In this document: piece by piece, positions 1-17,227 of the stretch
Layout of the letters: each line of letters opens with the position of its first letter
How positions within the stretch are numbered: the stretch's first letter is position 1
DNA from: Candidatus Electronema aureum
Lineage (GTDB): Bacteria; Desulfobacterota; Desulfobulbia; Desulfobulbales; Desulfobulbaceae
Reading direction: 5' to 3'
Length of the DNA: 32,000 bases
NCBI GenBank assembly: GCA_004284765.1
Contig: NQJD01000001.1
Coordinates: 30,001-62,000 of the forward strand
Program-made: the position numbers and the translations under genes
The notes under the pieces: generated by a model
The model's database searches: none
Told to the model about the DNA's origin: nothing
The model's input: the letters and a program-made list of their open reading frames with translations, nothing else

Positions 1-786
1 GTTCACCAAGAAATTGGCGGAGAAGGACATTTTGTTAGCGGAACAGGTAATTTTTATATAAATAAAACATTATCACCAGATAATTATTGGAAATTAATCT
101 CCAAGACACCGCACTGGTTGCTATTATTTGGATTGGCACCGTTTTTTTACAGATGGAACGAAGAAATATTTTTAGGAGAAATGAAACCAATGATGATTTT
201 TGAATTTATATTAATATCAGTAACTCTAATCCTTGGATTGCTTTGGTTACTATCATCGGAACACGAATTAAGTATTCTTGAACATCACTTAGGAAAATCC
301 CTCAAGCAAGGAAAATTTTCTCCTCGCATAATTTCGTATTCAATTCCGATATTCATGATAATACTGTCGGCATCTGCAAATCGTATATATATTTATGCAT
401 TTATTTACTGGATGTACATAAGTGTAGATGTCTTTGGGAGGAAGATTGCTGCAGATATTATTTACGATGCTGTTAAAGATGTTTGTGCTCATGGTGGATC
501 AAATAAGGCGATCGATAAGATATATTCGTATTATATAAAAAATTTTTTTGAGCTCAGAGGGTATATTACTGGCTCTGTATTTCTTGTAGTATTTCTTGTC
601 GGTATCTTGTCAGAAAATTTAATAGATAAATCAATTTTGCCACATATGTTTTTTCTGGAAAGAAAATTTGGTGTTATTGAGATTTTGTATCTAACAGCAA
701 CCAGCAGTATCGTTTTAAGCGAGATAGTAATTTGGTGTTGGAGAAAAGAAATGTATACTTATATATCAGAATATGATAATGCTTAA
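1..786 (+). CDS. multi-pass membrane protein of unknown function; reading frame is open to the window edge, so possibly 5'-truncated
   Basis: Frame +1 has no stop from nt 1 to the TAA at 784-786. The ORF-track start at 118 is TTG and the first ATG is at 181. The translation shows about five hydrophobic helices (MMIFEFILISVTLILGLLWLL, IISYSIPIFMIILSA, IYIYAFIYWMYISV, ITGSVFLVVFLVGIL, VIEILYLTATSSIVLSEIVIWCW). No family recognised. The DNA is AT-rich. Confidence 0.5.
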   Translation, partial: VHQEIGGEGHFVSGTGNFYINKTLSPDNYWKLISKTPHWLLLFGLAPFFYRWNEEIFLGEMKPMMIFEFILISVTLILGLLWLLSSEHELSILEHHLGKSLKQGKFSPRIISYSIPIFMIILSASANRIYIYAFIYWMYISVDVFGRKIAADIIYDAVKDVCAHGGSNKAIDKIYSYYIKNFFELRGYITGSVFLVVFLVGILSENLIDKSILPHMFFLERKFGVIEILYLTATSSIVLSEIVIWCWRKEMYTYISEYDNA

Positions 787-807
787 CGCAAATAAAATCT
801 GCCACCT

Positions 808-1416
808 TTGGCAAAAAAAGCAATCGTGTTAATTAAATCTGTTTACATATTTACCTATATTCTTTTTGTTGTATTTAGCTGTTTATTTAATTCATCTTGT
901 TTATCTCGAATTCCATCGAATGAGAGATGTAACTTTTCCTCTGTATTCTCAGAACCAGAACGTTGTTTTGGTGGAATAGGAGATCGATGCAAAGGTGTCC
1001 CTATTATCGCGCCTATGTATTTCAATGAATCTACCTGCACTGTTTCTGGTTATATGTCTGTTGGAAGCATACTGCATGACAAATGTTGTATAAGAACTTT
1101 GAATACCGGATATAAATGCGCATTTCCTGATGAAAAAACGAGTGAATGTCGCAAAGAATGGGATAAAGCCATTCGTGATTCGCTATGTTCTGTGTTTGGC
1201 GCAAAAAGGCAATGGGCAGTTACATTTGGCCCATACCAAATTGATAATGGAGGAGATTGCAGCACTGATTGTGAAACGCTGCCTTTTCGAGCACCATCAG
1301 GGGCTGCTGTTGATTTAGCGGATCAAATATACTGCAAGAATGGGTGTCTTAAATCAGCAAACGGCGAAGTCATATCCTATGAAGATGTTTGTGGGGATTA
1401 TTGTATTTGTCAATAA
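808..1416 (+). CDS. cysteine-rich secreted protein or lipoprotein candidate, unknown family
   Basis: 202-codon ORF with a TTG start (alternative GTG a few codons in). N-terminal basic then hydrophobic segment (KKAIVLIKSVYIFTYILFVVFSC) resembles a signal or lipoprotein leader. 18 Cys counted in the translation, including a CC pair and a terminal CGDYCICQ. No clear Shine-Dalgarno. AT-rich. Confidence 0.5.
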   Translation: MAKKAIVLIKSVYIFTYILFVVFSCLFNSSCLSRIPSNERCNFSSVFSEPERCFGGIGDRCKGVPIIAPMYFNESTCTVSGYMSVGSILHDKCCIRTLNTGYKCAFPDEKTSECRKEWDKAIRDSLCSVFGAKRQWAVTFGPYQIDNGGDCSTDCETLPFRAPSGAAVDLADQIYCKNGCLKSANGEVISYEDVCGDYCICQ

Positions 1417-1495
1417 TTTTTTTCTTTGCAAGAAACATAGCTAAACCCGCTGCCTTCTTTCATAGGTGAGCGTTTTTTCCTTGTCCTTAAATAGA

Positions 1496-1516
1496 CAAGG
1501 CAGCAGTTTCAGGAAC
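1496..1516. repeat. left copy of a perfect 21-nt direct repeat, CAAGGCAGCAGTTTCAGGAAC (att-like)
   Basis: The identical 21-mer recurs at 3042-3062 in the same orientation. The left copy overlaps the 3' arm of a small hairpin (ccttgtc-N8-gacaagg, 1479-1500) and lies where the AT-rich DNA ends. Confidence 0.85.
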
Positions 1517-1582
1517 AATTGACAACCTATCTACAGCAGGATACAATACACTGAGCTGCATTCCTGTTTTTTCGGAGTCCGG

Positions 1583-1661
1583 TAGGTTGGGGTGAGGCAC
1601 AAACCCCGACAATCATAAGGCGAGTCGGACATGTCGGGGTTCTCCGCCCACCCGCAACCTA
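1583..1661. repeat. long imperfect inverted repeat or structured element (candidate ncRNA, ssDNA hairpin or palindromic element)
   Basis: The left arm taggttggggtgaggcacaaaccccgac (1583-1610) pairs with the right arm gtcggggttctccgcccacccgcaaccta (1633-1661). This gives an outer ~12-bp stem, an internal loop, an inner 9-bp stem (aaccccgac/gtcggggtt) and a 22-nt apical loop. The loop contains a third gtcgg copy that allows an alternative pairing. Confidence 0.6.
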
Positions 1662-1687
1662 TGAGCTAACAAACAGCAGAGATTTTT

Positions 1688-1825
1688 CCTTCCAAAAGGT
1701 GTAGGTTTTGCCTATCAGAAGGCATCGGCTTTTCCTATCAAGAAACCTCCCTTCTATATATCAAAAAGGAGGTTTTTATATATCAAAAGGGAGTCTTTTT
1801 AGTACATAGAAGGGTAGTCTTTTGA
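1688..1825 (+). repeat. array of six degenerate ~21-24 bp tandem direct repeats (iteron- or operator-like), consensus about ctATCAaAAGGnnnnnnCTTTT
   Basis: Units: ccttccaaaaggtgtaggttttg / cctatcagaaggcatcggctttt / cctatcaagaaacctcccttc / tatatatcaaaaaggaggttttta / tatatcaaaagggagtcttttta / gtacatagaagggtagtcttttg. AAGG anchors sit at 1696, 1719, 1766, 1787 and 1810; the third unit is degenerate. Confidence 0.6.
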
Positions 1826-1850
1826 TTCGCAAAAAATCCGCATGTATCAA
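1822..1850 (+). promoter_or_regulatory. candidate sigma70 promoter for the 1907 ORF (TTGATT-N17-TATCAA)
   Basis: ttgatt at 1822-1827, a 17-nt spacer, tatcaa at 1845-1850. It directly abuts the last tandem repeat unit. AGGAGG at 1893-1898 sits 8 nt (1899-1906) before the ATG at 1907. Confidence 0.4.
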
Positions 1851-1906
1851 TGTATGTATTCATCTCTTTCCGTAAAGAATAATCATTTCTTATCAGGAGG
1901 TTCCCC

Positions 1907-2953
1907 ATGCCGGTTGGATACTATGTCAGAGAGAACAAACTCACCACGCCCCCTTCGTACAGCTGTCAGACAACTGCGGAAGACACACTTGGCTATGATG
2001 AAATCGCGGAACTTATTCATACGCTGAATCCGTCAATAACCGCTGCCCAGGTCAAGACGGTTTTGCAGAACTTCCAGCAGGTTGTCACGGAGCAGATTGC
2101 TGACGGCAAGTTCGTCAAATTAAAGAATTTCGTCTCCTTCATGCCGCGCCTCCAAGTGCGTTTGGACCTTCCGACCGATGACATTCCGCCTGATGCGGTG
2201 AAAGTGGCGGCCAAGATTCCGAGGCAGTTCAACCGGGCTGTCCAGAACATAGCTACCTATGAAAGGCTTGGTTATCCGTCCAAGGCCCCTGAAGTGGTCA
2301 TCGGGTATGAAACAAATACAAAGTACCCTCGGTTCATCAGGGAAGGATATCCGTTCCGCCTATCTGGGAAATTTCTTGGTTTTGATGTTGATGATGAGGA
2401 TTTAGGAATCTTCTTGGTTGATGCCAATGACAATGAGATCGAGCAGGACAAGATTGCTCTCAATGACCCGTCAAACGTGATCATCACTGCTGATTTCGGC
2501 GAAGCACCTGCTGCGTCTCCGAATGTCGAGAAGACCATCCTCTGCCGGAACAGATACACCTCGAACGGCACCATCCGGGAGGGATCCTACGAGCATGTGA
2601 GAAGTATGAATTTTATCGCGGCTGATCAGCTTGAGATGTTTGTTGCCGGTGCTGACGCGACAGGTCCTGTCCAGGCTGTGAAGCACAATGCGCCAGCTGA
2701 GGATTGCCGCGTTGAGGCGATATTGAAGCCTGACAATACGATCACATTGGCAATCGGCCCGTACATCGGTGAAATGGGGCCTCCGGTCACTGTGCCTCCC
2801 GAAGGCGGCAACATTGTCCTGCCCGGCCTTTCTGTTGATGTCAGACTGCATGTTGCCAATGCCGCAGCTTATGCTGCTCTGCGTAATTTTCTGCTGGCAC
2901 ATGGACGATATGTTCTGGAGGTCTGCAATATGGCTCAATTCGGCGGTGCCTGA
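1907..2953 (+). CDS. HU-like (HU_HIG-type) DNA-binding N-terminal domain fused to a DUF4469-like Ig-fold region, plus a ~120-aa unrecognised C-terminal extension
   Basis: Strong SD and ATG. The N-terminus (YYVRENKLTTPPSYSCQ...DEIAELI...ITAAQVKTVLQNFQQVVTEQIADGKFVKLKNF) matches my recollection of the Bacteroidota 'putative histone-like DNA-binding protein' family. The middle segment (PFRLSGKFLGFDVDDEDLGIFLVDANDNE...NDPSNVIITADF) resembles the DUF4469 pattern. This is recall only, not a search. Confidence 0.6.
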   Translation: MPVGYYVRENKLTTPPSYSCQTTAEDTLGYDEIAELIHTLNPSITAAQVKTVLQNFQQVVTEQIADGKFVKLKNFVSFMPRLQVRLDLPTDDIPPDAVKVAAKIPRQFNRAVQNIATYERLGYPSKAPEVVIGYETNTKYPRFIREGYPFRLSGKFLGFDVDDEDLGIFLVDANDNEIEQDKIALNDPSNVIITADFGEAPAASPNVEKTILCRNRYTSNGTIREGSYEHVRSMNFIAADQLEMFVAGADATGPVQAVKHNAPAEDCRVEAILKPDNTITLAIGPYIGEMGPPVTVPPEGGNIVLPGLSVDVRLHVANAAAYAALRNFLLAHGRYVLEVCNMAQFGGA

Positions 2954-3041
2954 TCTTGACGGCTTCTGGATTTGGCATGAGGCTGTTGCCTTTCACCCGA
3001 ACGAGATAGGCGGGATATTGGAAGAGATTGCCCGGAATGGG

Positions 3042-3062
3042 CAAGGCAGCAGTTTCAGGAAC
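3042..3062. repeat. right copy of the perfect 21-nt direct repeat, CAAGGCAGCAGTTTCAGGAAC (att-like)
   Basis: Identical to 1496-1516. It lies 88 nt after the stop of the 1907 ORF and 50 nt upstream of the favoured GTG start of the dgt-like gene. It would fall inside the coding sequence if the TTG at 3028 or the ATG at 3037 were the true start. Confidence 0.85.
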
Positions 3063-3111
3063 TCTTGCAGGATTTCCCTGTCATCCCTCCGATACGTGCT
3101 ACCTGAATACT

Positions 3112-4176
3112 GTGAACATTCGTCGCCAGTTAGAAGAACAGGAAAAACTTATCCTCTCACCTCATGCCTGTTTCAGTAGCAGATCGCGAGGGAGGTTGCG
3201 CGATGAGTCGCCCTGTGACCTCCGCACTGCCTTTCAACGCGACCGCGACCGCATCATTCACTCCAAAACCTTCCGCCGCCTCAAGCACAAGACTCAAGTT
3301 TTTTTAGCTCCAACCGGTGACCACTACCGAACCCGCTTAACCCATGTCCTTGAAGTTTCTCAAATTGCTCGCACCATTGCGGTCTGCCTACATTTGAACG
3401 AGTATCTCACTGAGGCCATTGCCCTTGGTCACGATCTCGGCCACACGCCTTTTGGCCATGCCGGTGAGTATAGCCTTAATCGCCTGCATCCGGGCGGCTT
3501 TCGACATTATATTCAGAGCCTACGGGTGGTTGATTTTCTCGAAAATCACGGTCAAGGGCTGAATTTGAGCTGGGAGGTACGGAACGGCATTGTCAAGCAT
3601 TCCAAGGGCTATCGGGACATTCTGCCTGACGACTCGCGGGAGCTGCCCGCAACGCTGGAGGGCCAAGCGGTGCGGGTAGCGGATATTATCGCCTACCTTA
3701 ATCACGACATGGATGACGCGCTGCGAGCCGAAATGATTAAAGAAAGCGATTTACCTATTCACTTGCGGCGGGTGGTGGGCGACCGGCCCGATCTTCGCAT
3801 TGCCGCCATGATGCGTGACCTGATCACAGAAAGCCTACGGGCCAACGAAGGTCGTCTCCGTCTCAGCCCGATGATGCAGGAGGTCATCTGCGGAATGCGC
3901 ACTTTCCTCTACGACAACGTTTATCGTAATCGGCTCGTACACAATGAGTTTGAAAAAGCACAAAATGTCATCCGCGAGCTGTACCTGTTTTTCTTGGAGC
4001 ATGAATTTCCAATCAGCCCAGAGCTGGTTTGCGCAAAACGTAAACCGCCCGTAGATGGCAAGGAAGAGAAACAGCTGCATCGATTAGTCTGCGATTTCAT
4101 TGCAGGAATGACAGACCGCTATGCCTTAGACCTATATAGTCAAATTTTCCTACCTAAACCTTGGTCGGTGATGTAG
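3112..4176 (+). CDS. dgt: dGTPase-like deoxyguanosinetriphosphate triphosphohydrolase family protein (HD domain)
   Basis: Motifs FQRDRDRIIHSKTFRRLKHKTQVF, RLTHVLEVSQIAR, HDLGHTPFGH and the C-terminal DFIAGMTDRYA are typical of the family. The start is placed at the in-frame GTG at 3112 (VNIRRQLEEQEKLILSP...), matching usual family N-termini. The ORF-track start at 3028 (TTG) and the ATG at 3037 remain possible. Confidence 0.85.
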   Translation: MNIRRQLEEQEKLILSPHACFSSRSRGRLRDESPCDLRTAFQRDRDRIIHSKTFRRLKHKTQVFLAPTGDHYRTRLTHVLEVSQIARTIAVCLHLNEYLTEAIALGHDLGHTPFGHAGEYSLNRLHPGGFRHYIQSLRVVDFLENHGQGLNLSWEVRNGIVKHSKGYRDILPDDSRELPATLEGQAVRVADIIAYLNHDMDDALRAEMIKESDLPIHLRRVVGDRPDLRIAAMMRDLITESLRANEGRLRLSPMMQEVICGMRTFLYDNVYRNRLVHNEFEKAQNVIRELYLFFLEHEFPISPELVCAKRKPPVDGKEEKQLHRLVCDFIAGMTDRYALDLYSQIFLPKPWSVM

Positions 4177-5936: not shown

Positions 5937-8030
5937 TTATGCTTTGTTGCTCTCTTCCAGCACGGCCTTGCGGCTCAGACGAATGCGGCCTCGGCTGTCA
6001 ACATCCAGCACTTTGACTTTGATCCGATCTCCTTCTTTGAGAACATCCTCAACCTTATTCACCCGCTGCACATCTAACTCGGAGATATGCACCATGCCGT
6101 CCGTGCCCGGCAGAATTTCAACAAAGGCACCGAAATCCTTGATTGTCTTGACTACACCATCATAAATTCTGCCGATCTCCGGCATAGCAGTCATTCCCTC
6201 AATACGAGCAACCAAAGCAGCAGCAGACTCATTGGTTTTGGAGAAAATTTTTATCGTGCCATCATCTTCTACGTCGATCTTAGCATCAAACTCGGCGGTC
6301 AACTCGCGGATGATTTTGCCGCCCGGCCCGATAATGTCGCGGATTTTATCTTGGCTGATTTTGATAGTGACATAACGCGGCGCATGATCTGAGATTTCTG
6401 TGCGCGGAATGCCAAGTGCCTCTTCCATTTTGCCGAGAATATGAAGGCGGCCTTCCTTGGCTTGGGCTAAGGCATTGCCCATGATCTCGCGGCTTACCCC
6501 GTCGATCTTAATATCCATTTGCAACGAAGCGATACCTGAAGACGTGCCAACCACTTTGAAATCCATATCGCCGAGATGATCCTCGTCGCCAAGAATGTCG
6601 GTGAGTACGACAATTTTATCGCCTTCTTTAATCAAGCCCATCGCCACGCCAGAAACCGGAGCTTTGATCGGCACGCCTGCATCCATCAGAGCTAAACTCC
6701 CGCCGCAGACGGTGGCCATTGATGACGAACCGTTCGACTCCAGTACTTCCGAAGTCAGCCGCATGGTGTAAGGAAAATTGACAGAATCGGGTAGCACTGC
6801 TTCAATACCTCGGCGGGCCAAGGTACCGTGGCCGATGTCGCGGCGACTGGGGCCGCGCAGGGCACGCACTTCGCCGACGCAGAAGGGCTGGAAGTTGTAA
6901 TGCAGCATAAAACGGCGGTACACATCACCGGTCAAGCCTTCGATATGCAGCTCGTCACGCTCAGAACCCAGCGTGGCCACGACCAGAGCTTGGGTTTCGC
7001 CGCGCGTGAAAAGAGCTGAACCGTGCGCCTTGGGCAACACGCCCACCTCGCATTGAATGGGCCGCACTTGATCAAAACTGCGTCCGTCAAGGCGGATACC
7101 TTGATTGACGATCCGATCGCGCATGACCTTTTTTCGATATGCGTCGAGCAGCTCCGCAACCTCGTCTGCCTTTTTATACAATTCTGGGTTACTATTAGCC
7201 AGCACTTCGTCTTTAAGTGCCTCGTAGCGACGACTCCGCTCCATTTTATCGGCTGTAGCAACCACGGTTTCCATGCCTGCGGCAGCTAATTCTTCTACTT
7301 GAGCCTTCAGAGCTTCGTTGACCTGCGGCGGCGTAACGCTCCGTTTGGGCTTGCCAACTTCTGCCCGCAGCGCATTCTGCACAGCGATAAGCGGCTGAAT
7401 CTCGCGATGAACAAAGAAAATGGCATCCAGCACCACTTCTTCGCTTAATTCAGCCGTGCGACCCTCCACCATGATTACAGCGGTCTCGGAACATGCCACG
7501 ACCAAATTCATAGCCGATTGCGCTAACTGGCTTTTGCTCGGATTGAGGACATACGCCCCATCAATATAACCAACTCTGGCCGCAGCAACCGGCCCGCTCC
7601 ACGGAATGTCAGACAAAGCCAAGGCCGCTGATGCGCCGTTCATAGCCAGAATGTCGGGATCAATCTCCGCTTCTGCTGAAAAAACGGTGGCAATCAGCTG
7701 GGTTTCTGCCCGATAACCTTTAGGAAAAAGCGGTCGCAGCGGACGATCAATCAATCGGCTGGTCAAAATTTCTTTTTCAGAAGGCCGTCCAATTTCCCGG
7801 CGGAAATAGTTACCCGGAATTCGGCCAGCAGCATAAAGTCGCTCCTGATATTCTATAGTCAAGGGCATAAAGCCCATGTCTTCTTTCTCTTTTTTTTCTG
7901 CTACCACCGTGACCAGCACCATCGTCTCGCCGCAGGAAATCACTACCGCGCCGTCTGCTTGCTTGGCCATTTTGCCGGTCTCAAACACCATGCTACGCCC
8001 ACCGATCTCTACCTCTGTTCTCTTGTACAT
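5937..8030 (-). CDS. pnp: polyribonucleotide nucleotidyltransferase (PNPase)
   Basis: 697 aa covering two RNase PH domains, KH and S1. The N-terminus MVFETGKMAKQADGAVV, the FMLHYNFQPFCVGE motif and the C-terminal S1 segment (GRIYDGVVKTIKDFGAFVEILPGTDGMVHISE) are all recognisable. Located downstream of rpsO. Confidence 0.97.
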   Translation of the reverse strand: MYKRTEVEIGGRSMVFETGKMAKQADGAVVISCGETMVLVTVVAEKKEKEDMGFMPLTIEYQERLYAAGRIPGNYFRREIGRPSEKEILTSRLIDRPLRPLFPKGYRAETQLIATVFSAEAEIDPDILAMNGASAALALSDIPWSGPVAAARVGYIDGAYVLNPSKSQLAQSAMNLVVACSETAVIMVEGRTAELSEEVVLDAIFFVHREIQPLIAVQNALRAEVGKPKRSVTPPQVNEALKAQVEELAAAGMETVVATADKMERSRRYEALKDEVLANSNPELYKKADEVAELLDAYRKKVMRDRIVNQGIRLDGRSFDQVRPIQCEVGVLPKAHGSALFTRGETQALVVATLGSERDELHIEGLTGDVYRRFMLHYNFQPFCVGEVRALRGPSRRDIGHGTLARRGIEAVLPDSVNFPYTMRLTSEVLESNGSSSMATVCGGSLALMDAGVPIKAPVSGVAMGLIKEGDKIVVLTDILGDEDHLGDMDFKVVGTSSGIASLQMDIKIDGVSREIMGNALAQAKEGRLHILGKMEEALGIPRTEISDHAPRYVTIKISQDKIRDIIGPGGKIIRELTAEFDAKIDVEDDGTIKIFSKTNESAAALVARIEGMTAMPEIGRIYDGVVKTIKDFGAFVEILPGTDGMVHISELDVQRVNKVEDVLKEGDRIKVKVLDVDSRGRIRLSRKAVLEESNKA

Positions 8031-8349
8031 GCAAACTCCTTTGCGTTCAGCTATCCCGGACTGATGGCCGGGTCTATTCTTCTGTGTTATTTGGTCGAGT
8101 TATTTTATTTTTTGGCATGTTCCGCCGCATTGCATACTTAAAAGAAAATGTACTTGGAAGGGAACACAGCGGCAGGATTGTCTTCCTGCTGACAGCAGGA
8201 AAATGTTTGAGGCGATGAGAAAAAATTTGCACAATGGTTCCTTGGGCAGCAATAACTTTATCCTGTCGGCGCAGCAGGCGACGCCGGAAGAAAATCAGCA
8301 GAAAAAGCCGAGGAAAAACCATATCGTTTTTTCAATCATTTGAGAAACC

Positions 8350-8379
8350 TGTCTCTATCTGTGCGCACAGATAGAGACA
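8350..8379 (-). terminator. perfect 30-nt palindrome just after rpsO; candidate rpsO terminator/attenuator or processing hairpin in the pnp leader
   Basis: tgtctctatctgtgc|gcacagatagagaca, located 24 nt downstream of the rpsO stop on the minus strand. It is followed by GGTTTCTC, which is only weakly U-rich, so read-through into pnp is likely. Confidence 0.5.
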
Positions 8380-8402
8380 AGGAACGCTACTGTTTGTTAC
8401 TG

Positions 8403-8672
8403 CTACTTCCTGATGCCCAGCGTCTGAATGATTGCCCGGTACCTGTTGATATCTTTCTTTCGCAGATACTGGAGCAGGCTACGCCGCTGACCAACCAATT
8501 TCAGCAGACCACGGCGAGAATGATGATCCTTGGCATTCGTCTGAAAATGAGCGGTGAGATAGCTGATTCGGTCGGAAATCAGAGCGATTTGCACTTCCGG
8601 CGAACCGGTATCGCCCTCATGGGCCGCGAATTTCTCAATGATCTCTTTTTTCTTTACTGTGCTTTGTGCCAT
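8403..8672 (-). CDS. rpsO: 30S ribosomal protein S15
   Basis: 89 aa starting [48 protein letters not shown] sits 6 nt upstream of the ATG at 8672. The longer ORF-track version (to 8831) is an upstream extension. Confidence 0.95.
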
Positions 8673-8827
8673 AATCGGCCTCCAAAAAAGGTGTTGTCCT
8701 TCTGCTGTCGGCAAAGCCTGCGCTTCCTCAGCCTCGCCGGAGTCTGGATACAATTGCCTACTGATCCGCACCCGAGGAATGAGATGCGGGAGACAATCCG
8801 CTGTTTCCGCCCGCTGCGGAACAGTCT

Positions 8828-9580
8828 TCACTTCAATGTTTCTTCTTTTGTCGCCGCCAACGCCTGCTCAACGGTCAACATCCCTGCTAAGAGCGCGGTT
8901 TGTGTAATACCTTCGGAGAAGAAAAGCAATCCACCGTCAAACGCCTCTTCCACCGCAAAACCACCGCTGCGGGTACGCCGTAAATCAGTCAGATGCGCCC
9001 CGCAGCCAATTTTACGGCCTATATCTGCGGCAAGTACCCTGATATATGTACCCCGGCTACATGAAACTGTGAACGACAGCCGAGCTGTATTCGCATCATA
9101 CCCGTTCAGATCGAGGCTGTAAATTTCAATCGGCTTGGCCGCCTTTTCAATCATGATACCTTGACGGGCATAATGATAGAGCGGCTTGCCTTGGTGCTTG
9201 GCTGCTGAATAGGCGGGCGGAGCTTGTAACTGCGGGCCAACAAACTCTGGCAGCAGCGCGACGATATCCTCTGAAATCAGCTCTGGCACCGGCCTAACTG
9301 CTGTCACACGGCCTTCAGGGTCAAGGGTTTCTGTTTCTTGGCCTAACTGAAGGACGGCCTGATAGGTCTTACGGCCTGTCATAAACGCATCAATGTGCTT
9401 GGTGGCTTCCCGCCCGGCGCACAGAATCAGCAAGCCGCTGGCAAAAGGGTCTAACGTGCCTGCATGTCCAACTTTTTTGATCTCCAGCAGTCGCCGTAGT
9501 TTCTGTACTACAGCAAAGGAGGTAACTCCGACCGGTTTATCAATTAGAAAAACCCCGACGGCGGACGCAGCTAAACTCAC
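8828..9580 (-). CDS. truB: tRNA pseudouridine(55) synthase
   Basis: Motifs [17 protein letters not shown] and [16 protein letters not shown] (catalytic Asp). Conserved position between rbfA/nrnA-like and rpsO. Confidence 0.9.
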
Positions 9581-10578
9581 TGTTTGCCTTGCCGCAGAGC
9601 TTGCTCCAGCACCGGCAAGAGCATATCACGCACTTGCTCCATGCTGCGCCCGGTCATGCGGAAACCAGCGGCATTTTTGTGACCACCACCGCCAAACTGA
9701 GCCGCAGCCCAAGCCACATCGCAATCACCCTTAGCCCGGATACTAACTGAAACTTCATCATCTTTCCGTTCCTTAAGAAAGACAGCAGCTCGCACCGCCC
9801 GGATTGAGCGAGGAAAGTTGATCAAATTGTCGCAGTCTTCATAATCAGTGCCGGTTGTTTGAAGCATTTTTCGAGAAACCTGAATGATCGCGACCTGATC
9901 GTCGAAGAATGTCTGGAGGGTGGAAAGCACCAATTGCATCAGCTGAAGGCTGCCAAAGGAAGCGTTGTCGTAGAGACGCTGACTGATTGCGGCAGGCCGG
10001 ACTCCCCGATTGAGCAACCGTCCAGCCACCGCAAAGGTGTGAGCGGAAGTGCAGTCGTACTGAAAGGAACCGGTGTCAGTGACAAGCGCGGTATAGAGGC
10101 ATTCAGCAGCTTCTTGGGAGATACTGTCCGCCACGCCCAACTCCACCGATAAATCATAAATCATCTCACCAGTTGAGGAGCGATGCGGCTCAATCCAGTG
10201 AAGATCGCCAAAGCCTGCGTTGCTCTGGTGATGATCAATGACTAAAAACGGTTTGATCTCGCGCAGCGCGGCTCCGTGTTTGCCTAATCTGGGCAAGTCA
10301 CCGCAGTCTAAGCAAATACCCATGATATCTGCTCCGCATTCCTCAACAAAAGCACGGATACGATTGATATCCATCTCAATCCGCGCCCCAGCGGCAAGAC
10401 TGCTGTACACCTCTACAGGCGGTTCTTCCAAATAACAAACCGTCTGCTTGCCCATCATGGTAAGAATATTGGCAAGACCAAACAAGGAACCCAGCGCGTC
10501 GCCGTCAGGGCGGACGTGAGTCGCCAGCACGATGTTTTGCACGGCTTCTATGGCCTGCCGGGCTGACTTTCTATTCAC
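9577..10578 (-). CDS. DHH/DHHA1 family phosphoesterase (NrnA-like oligoribonuclease / pAp phosphatase)
   Basis: Motifs HVRPDGDALGS, VIDHHQSN (DHH) and FGGGGHKNAAGF (DHHA1). 4-nt overlap with truB and 8-nt overlap with rbfA. Confidence 0.85.
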   Translation of the reverse strand: MNRKSARQAIEAVQNIVLATHVRPDGDALGSLFGLANILTMMGKQTVCYLEEPPVEVYSSLAAGARIEMDINRIRAFVEECGADIMGICLDCGDLPRLGKHGAALREIKPFLVIDHHQSNAGFGDLHWIEPHRSSTGEMIYDLSVELGVADSISQEAAECLYTALVTDTGSFQYDCTSAHTFAVAGRLLNRGVRPAAISQRLYDNASFGSLQLMQLVLSTLQTFFDDQVAIIQVSRKMLQTTGTDYEDCDNLINFPRSIRAVRAAVFLKERKDDEVSVSIRAKGDCDVAWAAAQFGGGGHKNAAGFRMTGRSMEQVRDMLLPVLEQALRQGKQ

Positions 10579-10987
10579 GGTCTTCTTCGCCGCTCTCTTT
10601 TGGCCTTTCTTTGTTGATCTGCCGAAATAGCCGCTCTAATCGTTCAACTTCCTCGCTCTGTCGGTCGTAGAAGAAGAGCAGTGCCGGGGTGCAGCGCATG
10701 TTCAGGGTTTTGGCGAGATGAGAGCGGAAAAATCCGCTGGCGTTCCGCAGAGCTTTGAGAACCTCAGCTGAACTGCTCCCTTCCGGCACGGTGAACCAAA
10801 TTTTGGCCTGCTTCAGATCAGGAGTTACCTGTACTCTGGAGTACGCCACTCTGGTCAGTCGGGCATCACGCACATCCTGACGCAGCAGCACAGACAGCTC
10901 CTGCATCACGGCCTCAGCCACTCGGTCTGGGCGCGAGCTTTTTGGCTTACCCAGACCGGGCAGGGTGAAATCGAATTCTTGCCTCAT
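10571..10987 (-). CDS. rbfA: ribosome-binding factor A
   Basis: RVAEAVMQELSVLLRQDVRDARL...VTPDLKQAKIWF pattern. Located immediately downstream of infB. Confidence 0.9.
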   Translation of the reverse strand: MRQEFDFTLPGLGKPKSSRPDRVAEAVMQELSVLLRQDVRDARLTRVAYSRVQVTPDLKQAKIWFTVPEGSSSAEVLKALRNASGFFRSHLAKTLNMRCTPALLFFYDRQSEEVERLERLFRQINKERPKESGEEDRE

Positions 10988-11018
10988 CGTACAATGCAGG
11001 AAATCCTGTCCTCCTTAA

Positions 11019-13694
11019 CTACAACGTGGCTGCAACTTTATCCACGTGGAAAGCTTCCAACGTGTCGCCAACCTTGATGTCATTGTATTTTTCCACCCCG
11101 ATGCCGCACTCATACCCTGCGGCTACATCTTTCACATCGTCTTTGAAGCGGCGGAGGGAAACAATCTTACCGGTGAAAATGACTACCGACTCGCGCAAGA
11201 CCCGAACATGGGCACTGCGCTCGATTTTGCCTTCGCTCACGATGCAGCCAGCAATGGTACCGACCTTGGGTACCGTAAAGGTCTCACGCACCTCGGCAGA
11301 GCCGATGACCCGCTCCCGCAGTTCGGGATCGAGCATACCGGCCATCGCCTTCTCAATATCCTCAAGAGCATGGTAAATAACATCATAGGTACGGATGTCC
11401 ACATGTTCTTTTTCTGCCAGTTCTTTGATTCTGGCGGCAGGACGAATATTGAAACCGATAATGATCGCCTCTGAAGCCGAAGCTAAATGAATGTCGTTTT
11501 CAGTTATTGCACCGGCACCCTCGTGCAGCACTCGCACTCGCACCGCAGCGGTGGAAAGATTTTCAGCCGCTTGTCCAAATGCCTGCAAAGTACCCTGGAC
11601 ATCGGCTCGCAGAATGACCCGCAGTTCTTTCACGCTCTGCTCGGCCATTTTCTCAAAGAGGTTATCCAAGGAAACCTTGGAGGCTGAGGCCAGCTCTGAC
11701 TCGCGCATCTTGAGCTGTCGCGCATCAGAAACGGCCTTGGCCATCTTCTCATCCTTGACCACCATGAACTCGTCGCCCGCTTGTGGCACACCGGACAGTC
11801 CCTGCACCTCAACCGGAATCGACGGTCCGGCCTCAGTGACCTGCTCGCCGCGTTCATTCATCAAGCTACGCACTTTGCCGCTAAACTGACCCGCAATGAA
11901 ATAATCGCCAGGCCGCAGAGTACCTTCCTGCACCAGCACCGTAGCTACCGGACCTCGGCCTTTGTGTAACTGGGCCTCAATGACTGCCCCGCGTGCTTTT
12001 CGGGCATGGTCAACCGTTAATTCGAGAATTTCCGCCTGAAGCTGAATATTCTCTAACAGCTCTGGGATGCCGATACCTTTTTTGGCCGAAGTCTCACAGA
12101 AAATGGTGCTGCCGCCCCATGCCTCTGGGATCAAACCAAAATCACCCAACTCGCGGATAACCCGCGCTGGGTCGGCGTTGTCCTTGTCAATTTTGTTGAT
12201 TGCCACGACAATCGGCACGTCAGCGGCCTTAGCATGAGCAATGGCCTCCTTGGTCTGCTCCATCACGCCGTCGTCCGCTGCAACCACCAGCACGACGATA
12301 TCCGTGACCTTCGCACCACGAGAGCGCATTTCGGTGAAAGCGGCATGACCAGGAGTATCAACAAAGGTGATATCCCCAGAGGGGGCCTGCACATGATAAG
12401 CACCGATATGCTGAGTGATACCGCCTGCTTCGCCAGCGGCTACATCCGTTCTGCGAATGGCATCAAGGATAGAGGTTTTGCCATGATCGACATGACCCAT
12501 GACCGTGACCACCGGAAAGCGGGACTTTTTCTCGCCGCCGGTCTCTTCGGCCGCCTGCAATGCCTCAACTCCCAGTTCCTCGGTCATACCTTGGCCAACC
12601 TCGTAACCGAAGTCTGCCGCCACTAATGCAGCAGTGTCAACATCTAAGGACTGATTGAGCGTGGCTAATACACCAAGACGCATCAATTTGGCGATGATTT
12701 CGCCCGCTTTGACACCCATCCGTTTAGCCAGATCGCCAACACTGATGGTCTCAAAAACGGTGATCCGCCGCTTGATCGCCTTGGTTTCAGCAACAGGGAC
12801 AGGCTGCGGCTTGCTTTTGGCGCGTTTGTCCTTTTTACGACGACCTTGATAGGGCATGTCGTCGCCGCCTGCACCGCTAAAGGTCTGAGGTGATCGGCCT
12901 TTGCCGCGTCCACCGCCTTTGCCGCCGCTCTTTTTAGCTCGACTGTCCTCTTCCGCGCTAACCGTCACTACCCGTTTGCCTCTTTTTTTGTTCTTAGAAG
13001 CATCAGGAGTGACCGCTGCCGCACCCGGAGCTGCATTAGCGGCTACACGGGGAGGTCTGGGGGATGAGGACTGCGGACGGGGAGCAGCTCCGCCTTGCGA
13101 AGGCCGTCCGCCGCCCGGGCCGGGTCGGCTGCCCGACCTTCTCGGTTCTTCGGTCGCCACTGGAATTTCCACTTGGCCAACAATTCGAGCTAATCCCTTA
13201 GCCCGTTTTGGTGCGCCTACTGTCGGCCTGCTGTCTCCAACACCGACAGCCGGAGTGCTTTTTTTCAGCCCTTCAACAGAAGGCGCACTGCCCGTTTCCG
13301 CCGGAACCGCCACATTCAAGACTGTTTCTTGCCCGGCACTCTGCTCTGCTGCTTTTTTCATTTTCGCCGCTTGCTCCGCCGCTGCTTTGGCCGCAGTTTC
13401 TTCCGCCTGTCGGGCAAGATGTTCCTTTTGATCCCGGGATCTACGTCGAATCACCGCCGCGCCTTTGTCTGGCATGTCCGCACCACCTCTGTTTTTTGCG
13501 CCGATCGGTTTGTCCGTCATCTCGGCAGTCGCCCTGCCCAGCACCTTGCGGCGGATGTTGGTCGCCATGTCGTCATCCACCGTGGAACTGGGGCTTTTAA
13601 TCGGATAGCCCATCTCCGCCAGCTTTTCTGCCAGTTCTTTGCTTTTGAGACCGGCCTCTTTCGCCAGATCGTAAATGCGGATCCTGCTCATCAA
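11019..13694 (-). CDS. infB: translation initiation factor IF-2
   Basis: 891 aa. N-terminus MSRIRIYDLAKE, a low-complexity Ala/Pro/Gly/Lys-rich linker, and a GTPase domain (VVTVMGHVDHGKTSILD, DTPGHAAF, NKIDK). Confidence 0.97.
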   Translation of the reverse strand: MMSRIRIYDLAKEAGLKSKELAEKLAEMGYPIKSPSSTVDDDMATNIRRKVLGRATAEMTDKPIGAKNRGGADMPDKGAAVIRRRSRDQKEHLARQAEETAAKAAAEQAAKMKKAAEQSAGQETVLNVAVPAETGSAPSVEGLKKSTPAVGVGDSRPTVGAPKRAKGLARIVGQVEIPVATEEPRRSGSRPGPGGGRPSQGGAAPRPQSSSPRPPRVAANAAPGAAAVTPDASKNKKRGKRVVTVSAEEDSRAKKSGGKGGGRGKGRSPQTFSGAGGDDMPYQGRRKKDKRAKSKPQPVPVAETKAIKRRITVFETISVGDLAKRMGVKAGEIIAKLMRLGVLATLNQSLDVDTAALVAADFGYEVGQGMTEELGVEALQAAEETGGEKKSRFPVVTVMGHVDHGKTSILDAIRRTDVAAGEAGGITQHIGAYHVQAPSGDITFVDTPGHAAFTEMRSRGAKVTDIVVLVVAADDGVMEQTKEAIAHAKAADVPIVVAINKIDKDNADPARVIRELGDFGLIPEAWGGSTIFCETSAKKGIGIPELLENIQLQAEILELTVDHARKARGAVIEAQLHKGRGPVATVLVQEGTLRPGDYFIAGQFSGKVRSLMNERGEQVTEAGPSIPVEVQGLSGVPQAGDEFMVVKDEKMAKAVSDARQLKMRESELASASKVSLDNLFEKMAEQSVKELRVILRADVQGTLQAFGQAAENLSTAAVRVRVLHEGAGAITENDIHLASASEAIIIGFNIRPAARIKELAEKEHVDIRTYDVIYHALEDIEKAMAGMLDPELRERVIGSAEVRETFTVPKVGTIAGCIVSEGKIERSAHVRVLRESVVIFTGKIVSLRRFKDDVKDVAAGYECGIGVEKYNDIKVGDTLEAFHVDKVAATL

Positions 13695-13743
13695 TTGCTC
13701 CCGTAACCTTTCTTGCCGTAGTATAACTGCAATCAGCAGCGGC

Positions 13744-13959
13744 TTAAAGACGAAATGCCCGTTTCAAGCCTTTTTTGTTCTTTTCTAACCGAAGGCGACA
13801 CTGATCGTTGCGGCAGCAGTAAACACCCCGTCCCGGCAGGCATCTCCTGCAATCCTCAACCAATGCACCTTCAGACAACACTAATCGCGCCATTTCTGTC
13901 GCCGAGCGTTTTTGCCCGCAGCCCTTGCAGGTGCGGACAGGGACATGCCCTCGCTTCAT
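13744..13959 (-). CDS. YlxR/DUF448-like small RNA-binding protein
   Basis: 71 aa with RTCKGCGQKR...GRGVYCC. The start overlaps the nusA stop by 4 nt, the canonical nusA-ylxR-infB position. Confidence 0.8.
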   Translation of the reverse strand: MKRGHVPVRTCKGCGQKRSATEMARLVLSEGALVEDCRRCLPGRGVYCCRNDQCRLRLEKNKKGLKRAFRL

Positions 13960-15290
13960 TCTTCGGAATTCAACTCGTCGTCAACGTCCTGTTGCCCGCT
14001 GCTGTTGTCAGCAGTATCCTGCGGTGGCGCGACAGCCTTTGTCTCTTTTGCTTCAGCGAAACCAGCAGCTTGAAGTTTCATCAATGCAGCCTGATCCTCA
14101 TCTACGCTGATGATCTCCGCCAATTCAGCCAACGGAGCCGTTGCGAGTTTGGCCGCTGAATCCAATCCGGCAGCGGTTAATTTGTCTGCCTCTTCTTCGT
14201 CAATGCCGTCCACAGCCAGCAGGCTTAAATAGCCAGGCCGCCCCATATCATGGTAATTTCGCTCACTTTTGACATCAATTCGCCAGTTGAGCAACCGAGC
14301 CGCAAGTCGCACATTCTGCCCCTGCCGCCCGATGGCCAAGGAAAGCTGATCGTCCGGCACCACCGCCAGCAAGGAATGCCGCTCTTCATCGACAATCACT
14401 GTGCTGACTTCAGCCGGGGCCAAGGCATTGCTGACATATTTAGCTGGATCAGGACTCCAAGGCACGATGTCAATGCGCTCGCCTTGCAACTCCTGTACCA
14501 CATTCTGTACCCGCGCCCCTTTCACACCGACGCAGGCACCAACCGGGTCCACGTCTGATTCGCTGGAGGTTACAGCAATTTTAGCCCGAAAGCCTGGCTC
14601 GCGAGCCGCACCCATAATTTTAACGATGCCTTCTGCGATTTCTGGTACTTCCAGCTCGAACAGCTTCATCAGAAATTCGTTGGAGGTTCGACTGAGAATC
14701 AGTTGGGAATCGCGTGCATCGTGCCGCACTTCTTCAAGATACGCTCGGATGCGGTCGCCCTGCTTGTAAGAACGCTTGGGAATTTGCCCCTCGCGCGGCA
14801 GCACTGCGTCCGTGCGACCCAAGTTGACGATCATTTTGCCCCGCTCAAAGCGCTGAACGATACCATTGACAATGGTACCCTCACGGTCGCGGAACATGTC
14901 GAAAACCACTTCGCGTTCAGCATCACGCATCCGGTGGATAATCACCTGCTTGGCTGACTGCGCGGCAATCCGCCCCAGTTCAGAGACGTTGTCTAATTTT
15001 TCGCCAAGGTCTTCTTCTAACTCGATGTCGGGAGCCAGTTTGCGGGCCTCGTCGATATGCACCTCGGATTCTTCATCCCAGACATCATCAACCACGGTGC
15101 GGTAGCGAAAAACTTCAATTTCGCCTAACTCCTCGTTAAACTGAACTTCCATGTCCCGCTTACCGCCGTACCTTTTCCGCACTGCTGAACGCACCGCCTC
15201 TTCAACTGCCTCAATCATCAAGGCGCGGTCGATGCCTTTGTCACGACAAATTTGATCGAGTATCCGTTTTAAATTTTCTCCACCTGACAT
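13956..15290 (-). CDS. nusA: transcription termination/antitermination factor NusA
   Basis: 444 aa. The N-terminal region, S1 segment (GTIVNGIVQRFERGKMIVNLGRTDAVLP), KH segments (GACVGVKGARVQNVVQEL, AIGRQGQNVRLAARL) and an acidic tail are recognisable. Confidence 0.97.
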   Translation of the reverse strand: MSGGENLKRILDQICRDKGIDRALMIEAVEEAVRSAVRKRYGGKRDMEVQFNEELGEIEVFRYRTVVDDVWDEESEVHIDEARKLAPDIELEEDLGEKLDNVSELGRIAAQSAKQVIIHRMRDAEREVVFDMFRDREGTIVNGIVQRFERGKMIVNLGRTDAVLPREGQIPKRSYKQGDRIRAYLEEVRHDARDSQLILSRTSNEFLMKLFELEVPEIAEGIVKIMGAAREPGFRAKIAVTSSESDVDPVGACVGVKGARVQNVVQELQGERIDIVPWSPDPAKYVSNALAPAEVSTVIVDEERHSLLAVVPDDQLSLAIGRQGQNVRLAARLLNWRIDVKSERNYHDMGRPGYLSLLAVDGIDEEEADKLTAAGLDSAAKLATAPLAELAEIISVDEDQAALMKLQAAGFAEAKETKAVAPPQDTADNSSGQQDVDDELNSEE

Positions 15291-15348
15291 GCTCTTTCTC
15301 CCCTCCGCTCAAACAAGCGGCCCAGGTCTCTATATATTCACCGCCCTG

Positions 15349-15813
15349 CTACAGGCTCAGACGGGCTTTCGCAACCCCTTCCAGATCAATTGTCATCGGC
15401 CCGACTTCATCCGCAGCAAGCGCAATCTGCTGTTTCTCCGTGTCCACCGCAGTCAGTGTACCAAGAAAGGCGTACTGGCTGTTCACCGGCTCCTTGAGCT
15501 TGATCCTAACCCGGCGACCCGTGAAACGGACAAAATCCTCGACCCGTTTCAGCGGACGTTCGGCTCCGGGAGAGGAAACCTCCAGCGTGTAAGCATGGCG
15601 AATGACATCCTCTGCCTCTAAGCGTGCAGCAAGCTGCCTGCTCACCGAGGCGCAGTCATCCACATTAACCCCGCCCTGCTCGCGATCAATAAATAATCGC
15701 AGTACCCAACCGGATTCTTGGCGAAATTCTACCTCCACCAACTCCAGCCCCATTTCCTCTGCAATCGGACGGGCAAACTGCTCCGCCGCCTTGGCCACCC
15801 GGTCTCCGCTCAC
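15349..15813 (-). CDS. rimP: ribosome maturation factor RimP
   Basis: 154 aa with GLELVEVEF...LRLFID...V.DCASVSRQL...YTLEVSSPGAERPL. Located directly upstream of nusA. Confidence 0.9.
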   Translation of the reverse strand: MSGDRVAKAAEQFARPIAEEMGLELVEVEFRQESGWVLRLFIDREQGGVNVDDCASVSRQLAARLEAEDVIRHAYTLEVSSPGAERPLKRVEDFVRFTGRRVRIKLKEPVNSQYAFLGTLTAVDTEKQQIALAADEVGPMTIDLEGVAKARLSL

Positions 15814-15964: not shown

Positions 15965-16040
15965 TGGAGCGGGTAACGGGGTTCGAACCCGTGGCCCCAA
16001 GCTTGGGAAGCTTGTGCTCTGCCAGCTGAGCTACACCCGC
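15965..16040 (-). tRNA. tRNA-Gly (anticodon CCC)
   Basis: 76 nt on the minus strand: GCGGGTG-TA-GCTC-AGCTGGC-AGAGC-A-CAAGC-TTCCCAA-GCTTG-GGGCC-ACGGG-TTCGAAC-CCCGT-TACCCGC-T-CCA. Cloverleaf folded by hand. Discriminator U, CCA encoded. Confidence 0.9.

Positions 16041-17150: not shown

Positions 17151-17227
<77 letters not shown>

Follow-up and report, generated by a model that had tools for sequence, protein, structure and literature searches.

An iteron-like array of 23-bp units coupled to an HU-HIG/DUF4469 gene in cable bacteria

Results

Organisation of the locus

The window, by which we mean the whole stretch of 32,000 nucleotides analysed here (Candidatus Electronema aureum, contig NQJD01000001.1), contains a gene for an HU-HIG/DUF4469 protein, preceded by a tandem array of 23-nt units, a candidate core promoter and a leader (Table 1). 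Array and gene lie within a conserved cassette, which has a GC-rich imperfect inverted repeat at its 5' edge and is flanked by two copies of a direct repeat. The dGTPase gene beside the cassette is closest to Ca. Electronema (91%). A preliminary description of positions 1688-1850 had listed the AAGG anchors of the array, the promoter hexamers TTGATT and TATCAA, and the downstream open reading frame, and all of these coordinates were confirmed in the sequence. The fragment it had singled out for cloning, 1440-3062, is larger than the conserved extent given by pairwise homology.

Table 1. Features of the cassette and its surroundings, numbered from the first letter of the window
Feature	Position	Strand	Basis or remark
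Partial inverted copy of the 21-bp repeat	1441-1456		
21-bp exact direct repeat CAAGGCAGCAGTTTCAGGAAC, left copy	1496-1516	+	Flanks cassette
Near-consensus sigma-70-like promoter, TTGACA-17-TACAAT	1519-1547	+	11/12 matches; points into cassette
Conserved 1.4-kb cassette (array and gene)	1563-2963	+	Pairwise blastn
GC-rich imperfect inverted repeat	1581-1662	+	Cassette 5' edge; arms 1581-1611 and 1632-1662, loop 1612-1631; fold -54.3 kcal/mol, z -2.65
Tandem array, 6-7 units, period 23 nt	1684-1829	.	TRF, autocorrelation, 23-nt register
Array units in the 23-nt register	1677-1699, 1700-1722, 1723-1745, 1746-1768, 1769-1791, 1792-1814, 1815-1837		Unit starts 1677, 1700, 1723, 1746, 1769, 1792, 1815
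AAGG anchors of the array	1696, 1719, 1766, 1787, 1810		
Inverted repeat AAACCTCC/GGAGGTTT	1743-1750 and 1768-1775		Spans array units 3 and 4
Candidate core promoter, TTGATT-N17-TATCAA	1822-1850	+	TTGATT 1822-1827, TATCAA 1845-1850; read from sequence, below scan threshold
Leader with ribosome-binding site AGGAGG (1895-1900)	1851-1906	+	Highly conserved
HU-HIG/DUF4469 gene, 348 aa	1907-2953	+	Pfam, PDB search, AlphaFold2 model
21-bp direct repeat CAAGGCAGCAGTTTCAGGAAC, right copy	3042-3062	+	50 bp upstream of dGTPase GTG start (3112)

The repeat array

The array units stand head to tail without spacers and have the layout TATCAAAAGG, 4-6 nt, T-run. The autocorrelation of 1688-1850 peaks at lag 23 with a value of 0.47 and reaches 0.44 at lag 46. 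For shuffled sequence the best lag gives a mean of 0.35 (s.d. 0.02), and over lags 8 to 59 the observed peak was matched in none of 5000 shuffles that preserved dinucleotide composition. With Tandem Repeats Finder (TRF), 1755-1823 scores 66-73 as 3.0 copies of a 22-nt unit; a score of at least 66 was obtained in one of 2000 shuffles of the intergenic region. As neither statistic is readily reproduced by shuffled sequence, the repeat array is real and beyond chance, and the repeats of about 23 bp, phased at roughly two helical turns, that had been read from the sequence in the preliminary description hold up against a formal test. The inverted repeat noted there for units 3 and 4 is also present. 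The three distal units have diverged too far for TRF and are visible in the autocorrelation; distal and proximal units differ strongly from each other. An iteron origin calls for three or more direct repeats, each of 17-23 bp, at intervals of about two helical turns, and the array with its six to seven units has this geometry.

Three other identities were considered for the array and rejected. A CRISPR array is ruled out by the lack of spacers between the units, and the only true CRISPR array nearby was seen at one of the related loci described below (L001). A series of overlapping promoters, in which the 23-bp period would reflect the offset between -35 and -10 elements, does not fit on our reading of the hexamers, which are out of register. 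A CsrA-type GGA sponge was discarded, again on our own reading, because GGA is absent from the array of locus L024 and from most main-clade units. A regulon search found no enrichment of the unit motif elsewhere in the 32-kb window.

Promoters and leader

The array borders the conserved 5' region of the HU-like gene, which agrees with the adjacency first described. The core promoter proposed at this junction stands in part. Both hexamers are present with a 17-nt spacer, and the -35, which coincides with the T-run of the last array unit, is invariant in four relatives; the -10 is weak and varies among these relatives (TGTCAA, TACCAT). Our promoter scan demanded a 16-18 nt spacer and a -10 with A at position 2 and T at position 6, and the candidate fails it for want of the final T. 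In main-clade arrays of types A and C the last unit supplies an invariant TTTTGATTC. Across four loci the leader hardly varies between TCTTTC and the ATG. By hand count, 1828-1900 is about 68% A+T, but the gene has its promoter and leader in these same nucleotides, whose composition is hence not diagnostic of an unwinding region.

The near-consensus promoter further upstream (Table 1) is local to the insertion context of the window. Locus L006 has an upstream TTGACA-17-TAAATT promoter (10/12 matches), and the scan found no near-consensus site upstream in L012 or L009; an upstream promoter is therefore not universal.

The HU-HIG/DUF4469 protein

The protein has three domains: a HU/IHF fold at the N-terminus, then an Ig-like domain, and a β domain at the C-terminus. 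It matches PF18291 (HU-HIG) with 31.4 bits (cut-off 26.2) and PF14734 (DUF4469) with 26.8 bits (cut-off 22.6). A profile search of the PDB retrieved 4FMR (E 1.2e-10), a Bacteroides HU-plus-Ig protein. The AlphaFold2 model has a mean pLDDT of 89, and its best Foldseek match is 4FMR as well (E 7e-13), followed by classical HU/IHF chains with target-normalised TM scores of up to 0.88. The protein has both the domain signature of the HU-HIG clade and the HU-then-Ig architecture of 4FMR. The HU/IHF fold assumed in the preliminary description is thus genuine, but DNA binding of the classical kind, assumed with it, finds little support. Canonical HU/IHF binders (PF00216) are basic proteins with conserved Arg/Lys residues in their β-arms. 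The 348-residue protein is acidic (pI 4.97, net charge -12), with a neutral HU domain (pI 6.6); the arm tip, PTDD, is acidic and invariant across the cable-bacterial alignment. The only invariant arm positions in an alignment of 32 sequences are F75, F78, L86 and P94; the family thus has no basic residue in the arms that is kept throughout. Given its low pI, acidic arm tip and lack of an invariant basic arm residue, the protein is unlikely to be a classical DNA binder.

The HU-HIG clade was defined by Burroughs et al. in 2017 and described as a Bacteroidetes radiation, its genes lacking operon partners (PMC5499826). The proteins were argued to be unlikely sequence-specific factors, and a role in biological conflicts was proposed, possibly by binding protein or RNA; RNA or protein binding was suggested for the Ig-fused members in particular (PMC5499826). 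In 4FMR the Ig domain occupies the DNA cradle (PMC5499826). No PADLOC defence model matches the protein of the window. DUF4469 is not mentioned in any paper that we found, nor did we find a description of a tandem repeat at an HU-HIG gene in cable bacteria.

Arrays at related loci

Close homologs of the protein come only from cable bacteria (Ca. Electrothrix, Ca. Electronema and Desulfobulbaceae MAGs) and form two paralog clades, 79-95% and 42-47% identical to the window protein. We fetched 26 related loci, referred to by L numbers, of which 23 had upstream DNA that could be recovered. In every one of these 23, TRF places a period-23 array no more than 600 nt ahead of the start codon, so the repeat does recur beside homologs of the gene, and it does so in both paralog clades. 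The arrays comprise at least nine unit sequences in 3-13 copies: TTTGCCTGTCAAAAGGCGTAGGG, ACCTTCTTACATATAAAAGGGAG, AAAAGGCAGACCTTTTGACATAT, AAAATACATGTATTTTGACGTAC, ATACAGATATTCTGAGATATAGA, GCAAGCATGCAATCGATCGGACC, CGCAACCATGCAATCGATCCGAC (12.7 copies), CTGACACTGGTCAGGATCAACAC and CTGAGCCTGCTCACCGTCGGACG (6.7 copies). The period is 23 in every unit type, and there is no other period-23 array in 187.6 kb of the same cable-bacterial DNA. In L008 the last unit of the array is of another type.

The distance of the array from the gene depends on the array type. In main-clade types A and C the proximal edge lies 78-87 nt before the ATG. Types D and E reach to 25 nt before the ATG, and arrays so placed must therefore overlap the promoter or be transcribed. 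Types D and E also co-occur with a variant of the N-terminal 25 residues (K4, I9, R11, A19, I21) on otherwise different protein backbones, so that array and first codons are evidently swapped together, as one block.

Many units contain dyads. One layout recurs in several unit types: 6-bp arms separated by a 4-nt gap and followed by a 7-nt spacer, or, in another reading, a dyad of 19 bp around a 7-nt centre, followed by a linker of 4 nt (6/7/6/4). The symmetry of each array was compared with 300 controls in which an identical column permutation was applied to every unit. Dyad symmetry exceeds these controls in L012 (0/300), L011 and L008 (2/300) and L016 (4/300); it is also significant in L010 and marginal in L006, L001 and L009. 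It is absent or not significant in six arrays: L014, L018, L019, L005, L024 and that of the window, whose symmetry was equalled by 36 of the 300 controls. We conclude that the universal property is the 23-bp phasing of the DNA, and that dyads are frequent and not obligatory.

DNA or RNA

Mismatches between the 6-bp arms comprise 35 G:T and 31 A:C, and such near-equal numbers mean that neither strand has the wobble bias that an RNA helix would be expected to leave. Many arrays fold better than shuffled sequences (z -3 to -10), and in main-clade arrays the sense and antisense folds are equally stable, with no consistent strand bias. On the sense strand, the array of L024 fails to fold (z +0.27), and folding of L005 is not significant (z -0.79). 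Rfam 15 at the gathering score finds only two tRNAs in the window; at permissive thresholds, all matches in 1400-1960 fall far below the gathering score. A known RNA is ruled out by Rfam at both thresholds, and the wobble test and strand-specific folding give no RNA signal. With no wobble bias and one unit type that does not fold, the array most likely works as a DNA element.

Cassette borders and flanking sequences

By pairwise blastn, homology between loci extends from -344/-330 to +1047/+1057 relative to the ATG. The flanks are unrelated in most locus pairs and the cassette occurs in many genomic contexts; these comparisons show, at the level of sequence homology, that array and gene are passed on together in a single cassette of 1.4 kb. 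An all-against-all comparison of flanking open reading frames from 27 sequences (the 26 loci and the window) found no conserved neighbour. The closest dGTPase loci (L031, L032; 76-80% DNA identity), compared in search of a site without the insertion and its 21-bp repeats, have no upstream sequence in common with the window. One MAG has two copies of the cassette (L006, L007). A terminator after the stop codon is kept in some relatives; the window lacks it.

The preliminary description had also suggested a small replicon or a partition site. The cassette and the 32-kb window contain no initiator gene, no gene of the ParA/ParM type and no other replicon or partition gene. The initiator gene in cis that marks an iteron origin is missing, and so is the adjacent ParA, ParM or TubZ NTPase of a partition locus; the neighbours are orphan ORFs and the dGTPase gene. 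No transposase or integrase is found among the called neighbour genes or the recurring ORF families.

The GC-rich inverted repeat is found once per locus in 11 main-clade loci, in the same orientation and just 5' of the array, and its 3' half is best conserved. It is found nowhere else in the window or the loci and matches no Rfam family. A dispersed MITE or REP element is rejected by this single occurrence per locus, with none elsewhere in about 190 kb, and an integron attC site by the GTT...AAC polarity, which by our own reading is reversed.

The two exact copies of the 21-bp direct repeat are the only ones in 32 kb, where none is expected by chance. Loci L001 and L019 have an analogous flanking repeat of 16 bp. 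For the 21-bp and the 16-bp repeat alike, the following host gene has the right copy in its 5' region, and a TTGACA motif comes directly after the left copy. No flanking repeat of at least 14 bp is present in the other 15 loci examined.

Rates and mode of change

Aligned with L006, the window shows two exact 23-nt deletions, and arrays therefore change by whole units. Among type-C loci in different contexts (n=5), the array is 97.2% and the spacer 96.3% identical, while the adjacent gene is 89.3% identical at third codon positions and 98.7% at positions 1 and 2. In the promoter-proximal 40 nt there are no mismatches in 240 comparisons among four type-C loci, whose third positions differ by 5.8-20%. 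These alignments show the array to be under slower change than neighbouring third codon positions in close relatives, although part of the contrast could stem from recombination, given a gradient along the locus and clear mosaicism. Its retention in two old paralog clades argues for the array being a functional, selected DNA element.

Three independent assemblies are identical to the window over 3 kb and all start at 1820-1826, the proximal edge of the array. The array edge breaks short-read assemblies, and the module is therefore likely to be truncated in many MAGs.

Homologs on rep_O elements

More distant homologs of the protein (31-40% identity), the nearest outside cable bacteria, are found on small elements with genes for an HTH protein and Phage_rep_O; some of the elements also have a membrane FtsK-like ATPase. 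All six independent elements with such homologs encode Phage_rep_O, and all six have a period-23 iteron array inside rep_O, beside a (CTTT)n or AT-rich tract, which is how lambda-type iterons are classically arranged. The iterons share the 6/7/6/4 dyad layout with several cable unit types, and on account of this common period and arm/centre/arm/linker arrangement the label 'iteron-like' given in the preliminary description is apt. The elements have a GC content near that of cable bacteria, and their HU-like module frequently occurs in duplicate or carries additional C-terminal domains by fusion, an RCC1 propeller being one example.

The iterons of these elements lie 1-2 kb from the HU-like gene, and there is no array upstream of that gene. 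No cable unit matches any of the six rep_O iteron consensus sequences. Searches by tblastn with two rep_O proteins gave nothing better than E=2 in the window or any cable locus, and with no match near any array we discard the idea that the array is a decayed rep_O gene. The five ORFs around the array lack a Phage_rep_O domain. No relative of the HU-HIG protein was found in IMG/VR, among INPHARED phages or among PLSDB plasmids; this HU-HIG branch is confined to cable bacteria and rep_O-type mobile elements.

Discussion

We tentatively favour the view, at somewhat less than even odds, that the array is a phased protein-binding array controlling the adjacent promoter, with a putative binder. The array would consist of helically phased binding sites that form an iteron-like operator or upstream control region of the HU-HIG/DUF4469 gene. 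A protein, probably a dimer, would load cooperatively on successive units and so set transcription of the downstream gene. The binder would most simply be the gene's own HU-fold product, which is the sole partner that always travels with the array, and control would then be autoregulatory. The layout of the array may have descended from, or converged on, the lambda-O-type iterons of rep_O elements. A control region of this kind is consistent with a spacing of 23 bp (about 2.2 helical turns) that is held while the unit sequence turns over, and with an N-terminus of the HU-fold product that co-segregates with the array type. Also in its favour are the arrays at all 23 loci and their restriction to this gene, the slow change of the array in close relatives, the gain and loss of whole units, the lack of an RNA signature, the dyads of several unit types and, in types A and C, the fixed distance to the ATG. 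Several observations speak against it. The protein is acidic, its arms are not basic and the cradle of its structural relative 4FMR is filled by the Ig domain. Strong differences between units of one array, as in the window and L008, are awkward for a single sequence-specific binder. The six arrays with no significant dyad symmetry, the weakness of the candidate promoter downstream, the type D and E arrays that reach to 25 nt before the ATG and the rep_O-element homologs that have no upstream array also count against an operator.

The second explanation, which we regard as unlikely, is that the array is a captured set of lambda-O-type iterons, be it what is left of an origin, an origin that depends on a helper, or a chromosomal decoy by which initiators of invading rep_O elements are titrated, a form of immunity of the incompatibility type. 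The binder would then be a Rep_O-like protein encoded elsewhere and not the HU-like protein, and an acidic protein need not bind DNA at all. The invariable association of the distant homologs with Phage_rep_O and its internal period-23 iterons points in this direction, as does the dyad layout common to these iterons and several cable unit types. Fast turnover of the units would fit an arms race or an incompatibility determinant; the AT-rich stretch after the array and the many contexts of the cassette are also compatible with capture. However, neither a rep_O gene nor a remnant of one is present in the window or any cable locus, the cable units match none of the six iteron consensus sequences, and the iterons of the elements are distant from the HU-like gene instead of upstream of it. 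The fixed position of the array relative to the start codon in two ancient paralog clades indicates coupling with the gene, and the PADLOC defence models do not match the protein.

A somewhat smaller chance attaches to the two versions, taken jointly, of a self-contained mobile nucleoprotein module of a hitherto undescribed kind. In version (a) the HU-HIG/Ig protein would recognise its own fast-evolving array; in version (b) the array would be a chromosomal iteron decoy, kept by cable bacteria together with a captured element gene so that rep_O elements are hindered in replicating. Both versions would account jointly for the strictness of the 23-bp period, for units that turn over between close relatives and for the link to rep_O elements.

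The remaining explanations are less likely than both an operator and a set of O-type iterons. It is improbable that the array is transcribed in a long 5' leader and acts as RNA, its hairpins binding a protein (possibly the HU-like product) or else stabilising or attenuating the mRNA. Such a leader would suit the near-consensus promoters upstream of the array in the window and L006 and the TTGACA just upstream of the array in L001 and L019, though the latter was not reported by the promoter scan. It would also suit the arrays of types D and E that end 25 nt before the ATG, the stable folds of many arrays, the type-A units, which resemble a small hairpin followed by a T-run, and the proposal of Burroughs et al. 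that Ig-fused HU-HIG proteins bind RNA or protein (PMC5499826). What weighs against it is that G:U-compatible mismatches are not in excess on either strand, that L024 and L005 do not fold significantly on the sense strand, and that palindromes lacking a loop (such as GCATGC and ATCGAT) are unable to fold into RNA hairpins; L012 and L009 yielded no upstream promoter in the scan, and Rfam gave no match.

We think it slightly less probable again that the cassette is mobile by way of the array or the neighbouring GC-rich inverted repeat, either of which would act as a recombinase or transposase site, comparable to the multi-site ends of Tn7 or Mu. The sharp homology borders of the cassette in its many contexts, its two copies in one MAG, the direct repeats flanking it in the window, L001 and L019, and the exchange of the 5' block (array and N-terminus) between backbones could all be taken as signs of movement. 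Yet the 3' end has neither an array nor a matching inverted repeat, no transposase or integrase was found among the called neighbours or recurring ORF families, and the flanking repeats differ in length and sequence where they occur, with none of at least 14 bp in the 15 other loci. Least credible of all is a neutral minisatellite that hitch-hikes with the gene, which would account for the variable copy number, the unit-sized indels, the wide drift of unit sequences and the assemblies that break at the array, but not for an array that all 23 loci have kept, across two paralog clades with about 45% identity, fixed at period 23 in all unit types, more conserved than third codon positions and without comparable arrays elsewhere in 188 kb.

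To our knowledge, HU-HIG is a large family with no known function or target. The array and the HU-HIG protein are a concrete pair for testing, as the cable-bacterial branch is always accompanied by a private, selected and phased array. If the protein recognises its own array, this would be the first cognate nucleic-acid target for the HU-HIG clade; if the array is an autoregulatory operator, an HU fold would be used as an iteron-type binder; and if it is an iteron decoy or helper-dependent origin, it would represent a new way for a chromosome to interact with replicons. We know of no cable bacterium in pure culture and of almost no characterised regulatory DNA from this group. In such a group, a conserved module of 1.4 kb in which the cis element is plain to see offers a rare point of entry.

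Comparison with known systems

The closest parallels are the iterons of lambda O and of the plasmids P1, F, R6K, RK2 and pPS10, which like the cable array are tandem direct repeats about two helical turns apart. The spacing is 20-24 bp in lambda, and in the rep_O elements it is exactly 23 bp, as in the cable array. Iterons run into a gene promoter and diverge fast between lineages, which is reminiscent of the array; they often have an internal dyad with an A-rich centre and adjoin an AT-rich stretch, traits that the cable arrays may share. Unlike iterons, the cable array has no initiator gene in cis or in the window; it is chromosomal and lies upstream of an HU-fold gene, not in or beside rep; and a cellular lineage has conserved it in two paralog clades.

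Repeat-type centromeres and operators, such as R1 parC/ParR, the pSM19035 omega heptads and F sopC/SopB, likewise have short phased repeats upstream of or across a promoter. The gene behind that promoter encodes a small dimeric DNA-binding protein, and site and protein co-evolve and move as a module. The cable array differs in having no partner NTPase (ParA, ParM, TubZ), in a candidate binder that is acidic and of a different fold, and in units of 23 bp as opposed to 7-11 bp or 43 bp. The REP, BIME and RIP elements of enterobacteria are clustered short palindromic intergenic units too, with a link to the HU/IHF family in that they bind IHF, HU and gyrase. REP elements occur in hundreds of dispersed copies in alternating orientation, usually at the 3' ends of genes, whereas the cable unit motif is found in one array only.

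The protein of the window resembles the HU-HIG clade (PF18291, 4FMR) in passing the Pfam cut-offs and in having no conserved operon partner. It departs from the clade as described, a Bacteroidetes radiation with no known DNA target, in its three-domain form of 348 residues, in its occurrence in cable bacteria and on rep_O elements, and in that the cable form always has a cognate upstream array (23 of the 23 loci with upstream DNA). By its sequence features the array resembles iterons or repeat-type operators and centromeres, and it has neither the initiator of an iteron origin nor the NTPase of a partition locus. What appears to be new is the permanent pairing of an HU-HIG gene with an iteron-like array, a pairing seen in cable bacteria only and with ties to rep_O elements, in which the array has a presumed function in control of the gene.

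Direct repeats flanking the cassette

The cassette carrying the HU-HIG/DUF4469 gene and its upstream period-23 array lies between two exact copies of a 21-bp sequence, and in Ca. Electrothrix aestuarii (L001) it lies between copies of a 16-bp sequence that is present in a second cable-bacterial locus, L019, as well (see table). In both cases the next host gene has the right copy in its 5' region; this gene encodes a dGTPase for the 21-bp repeat and a TonB-dependent receptor for the 16-bp repeat. Taken together, the repeats and the position of the right copy suggest that the cassette was inserted with a long target duplication, or was integrated from a circular form. We sought an empty site for the cassette and found none; the closest dGTPase loci (L031 and L032) have no upstream sequence in common with the window.

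Features of the window and of L001
Feature	Location	Remark
Orphan ORF 1	window 118-786	inside AT-rich island
Orphan ORF 2	window 808-1416	inside AT-rich island; cysteine-rich, hydrophobic N-terminus
Partial inverted copy of 21-bp repeat	window 1441-1456	
21-bp exact direct repeat	window 1496-1516 and 3042-3062	either side of cassette
Sigma-70-like site, TTGACA-17-TACAAT	window 1519-1547	predicted; 11/12 positions match
GC-rich imperfect inverted repeat	window 1581-1662	fold -54 kcal/mol
tRNA-Gly(ccc)	window 15965-16040	
tRNA-Met	window 17151-17227	
16-bp exact direct repeat	L001 3605-3620 and 5392-5407	either side of cassette

The predicted sigma-70-like site is immediately 3' of the left direct repeat and is oriented into the cassette. 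The GC-rich inverted repeat that follows is cassette-specific; two related loci (L012 and L016) have an insert of ~110 nt in place of the loop, and four others (L006, L015, L023 and L025) lack the 5' arm.

Adjoining the cassette, window positions 1-1480 form an AT-rich island (GC content 34.7%, versus 51.9% in the remainder of the window) that looks like foreign DNA. Neither of its two ORFs has a match in Pfam, NCBIfam or PADLOC. The remaining window is an ordinary core region with pnp, rpsO, truB, a DHH-family gene, rbfA and infB (5937-15813); judging by position alone, the ORFs at 13956-15290 and 15349-15813 could be nusA and rimP.

Variation in the array and among related loci

Three independent short-read assemblies yielded contigs (L037, L038 and L039) that are identical to the window across 3 kb and have their first nucleotide at window 1820-1826. 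Their common start, exactly at the array's promoter-proximal edge, makes it probable that natural populations carry the array in polymorphic or multi-copy form; it truncates contigs of MAGs. In L006 (3734-3772) and L012 (2363-2381), a terminator scan picked out individual array units, each read as a small hairpin with a T-run behind it. Were the array transcribed, such units could weakly pause or terminate the polymerase.

In Electrothrix sp. GW3-4 (L002 3994-5045), the gene copy is frameshifted by +1 at codon 6 and has a premature stop ~90 nt ahead of the normal one, and unrelated GC-rich sequence takes the place of the two proximal array units. Either this copy has become a pseudogene or the assembly is wrong here. 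L001 (CP159373) contains a CRISPR array at 1977-3470, with some 20 repeats (GTCTTAATACCCTCTTCATAGGGTAGGTGTTACGAC), that ends ~530 nt upstream of the HU-HIG/DUF4469 gene.

Homologues on rep_O elements

On the rep_O element L036, three copies of the hairpin GTATGGACGGCAAGTTGAGCCGTCAAT (1700-1775 and 2897-2925) bracket two tandem paralogues. Another such element, L027, encodes a 700-residue protein (837-2939) that joins a complete HU-HIG/DUF4469 module to an RCC1 β-propeller. The module shares 30-36% identity with the cable-bacterial proteins, and the fusion gene is immediately upstream of a stand-alone paralogue. Family members of 540-880 residues are numerous, and these lengths suggest a conserved N-terminal module combined with variable C-terminal domains.
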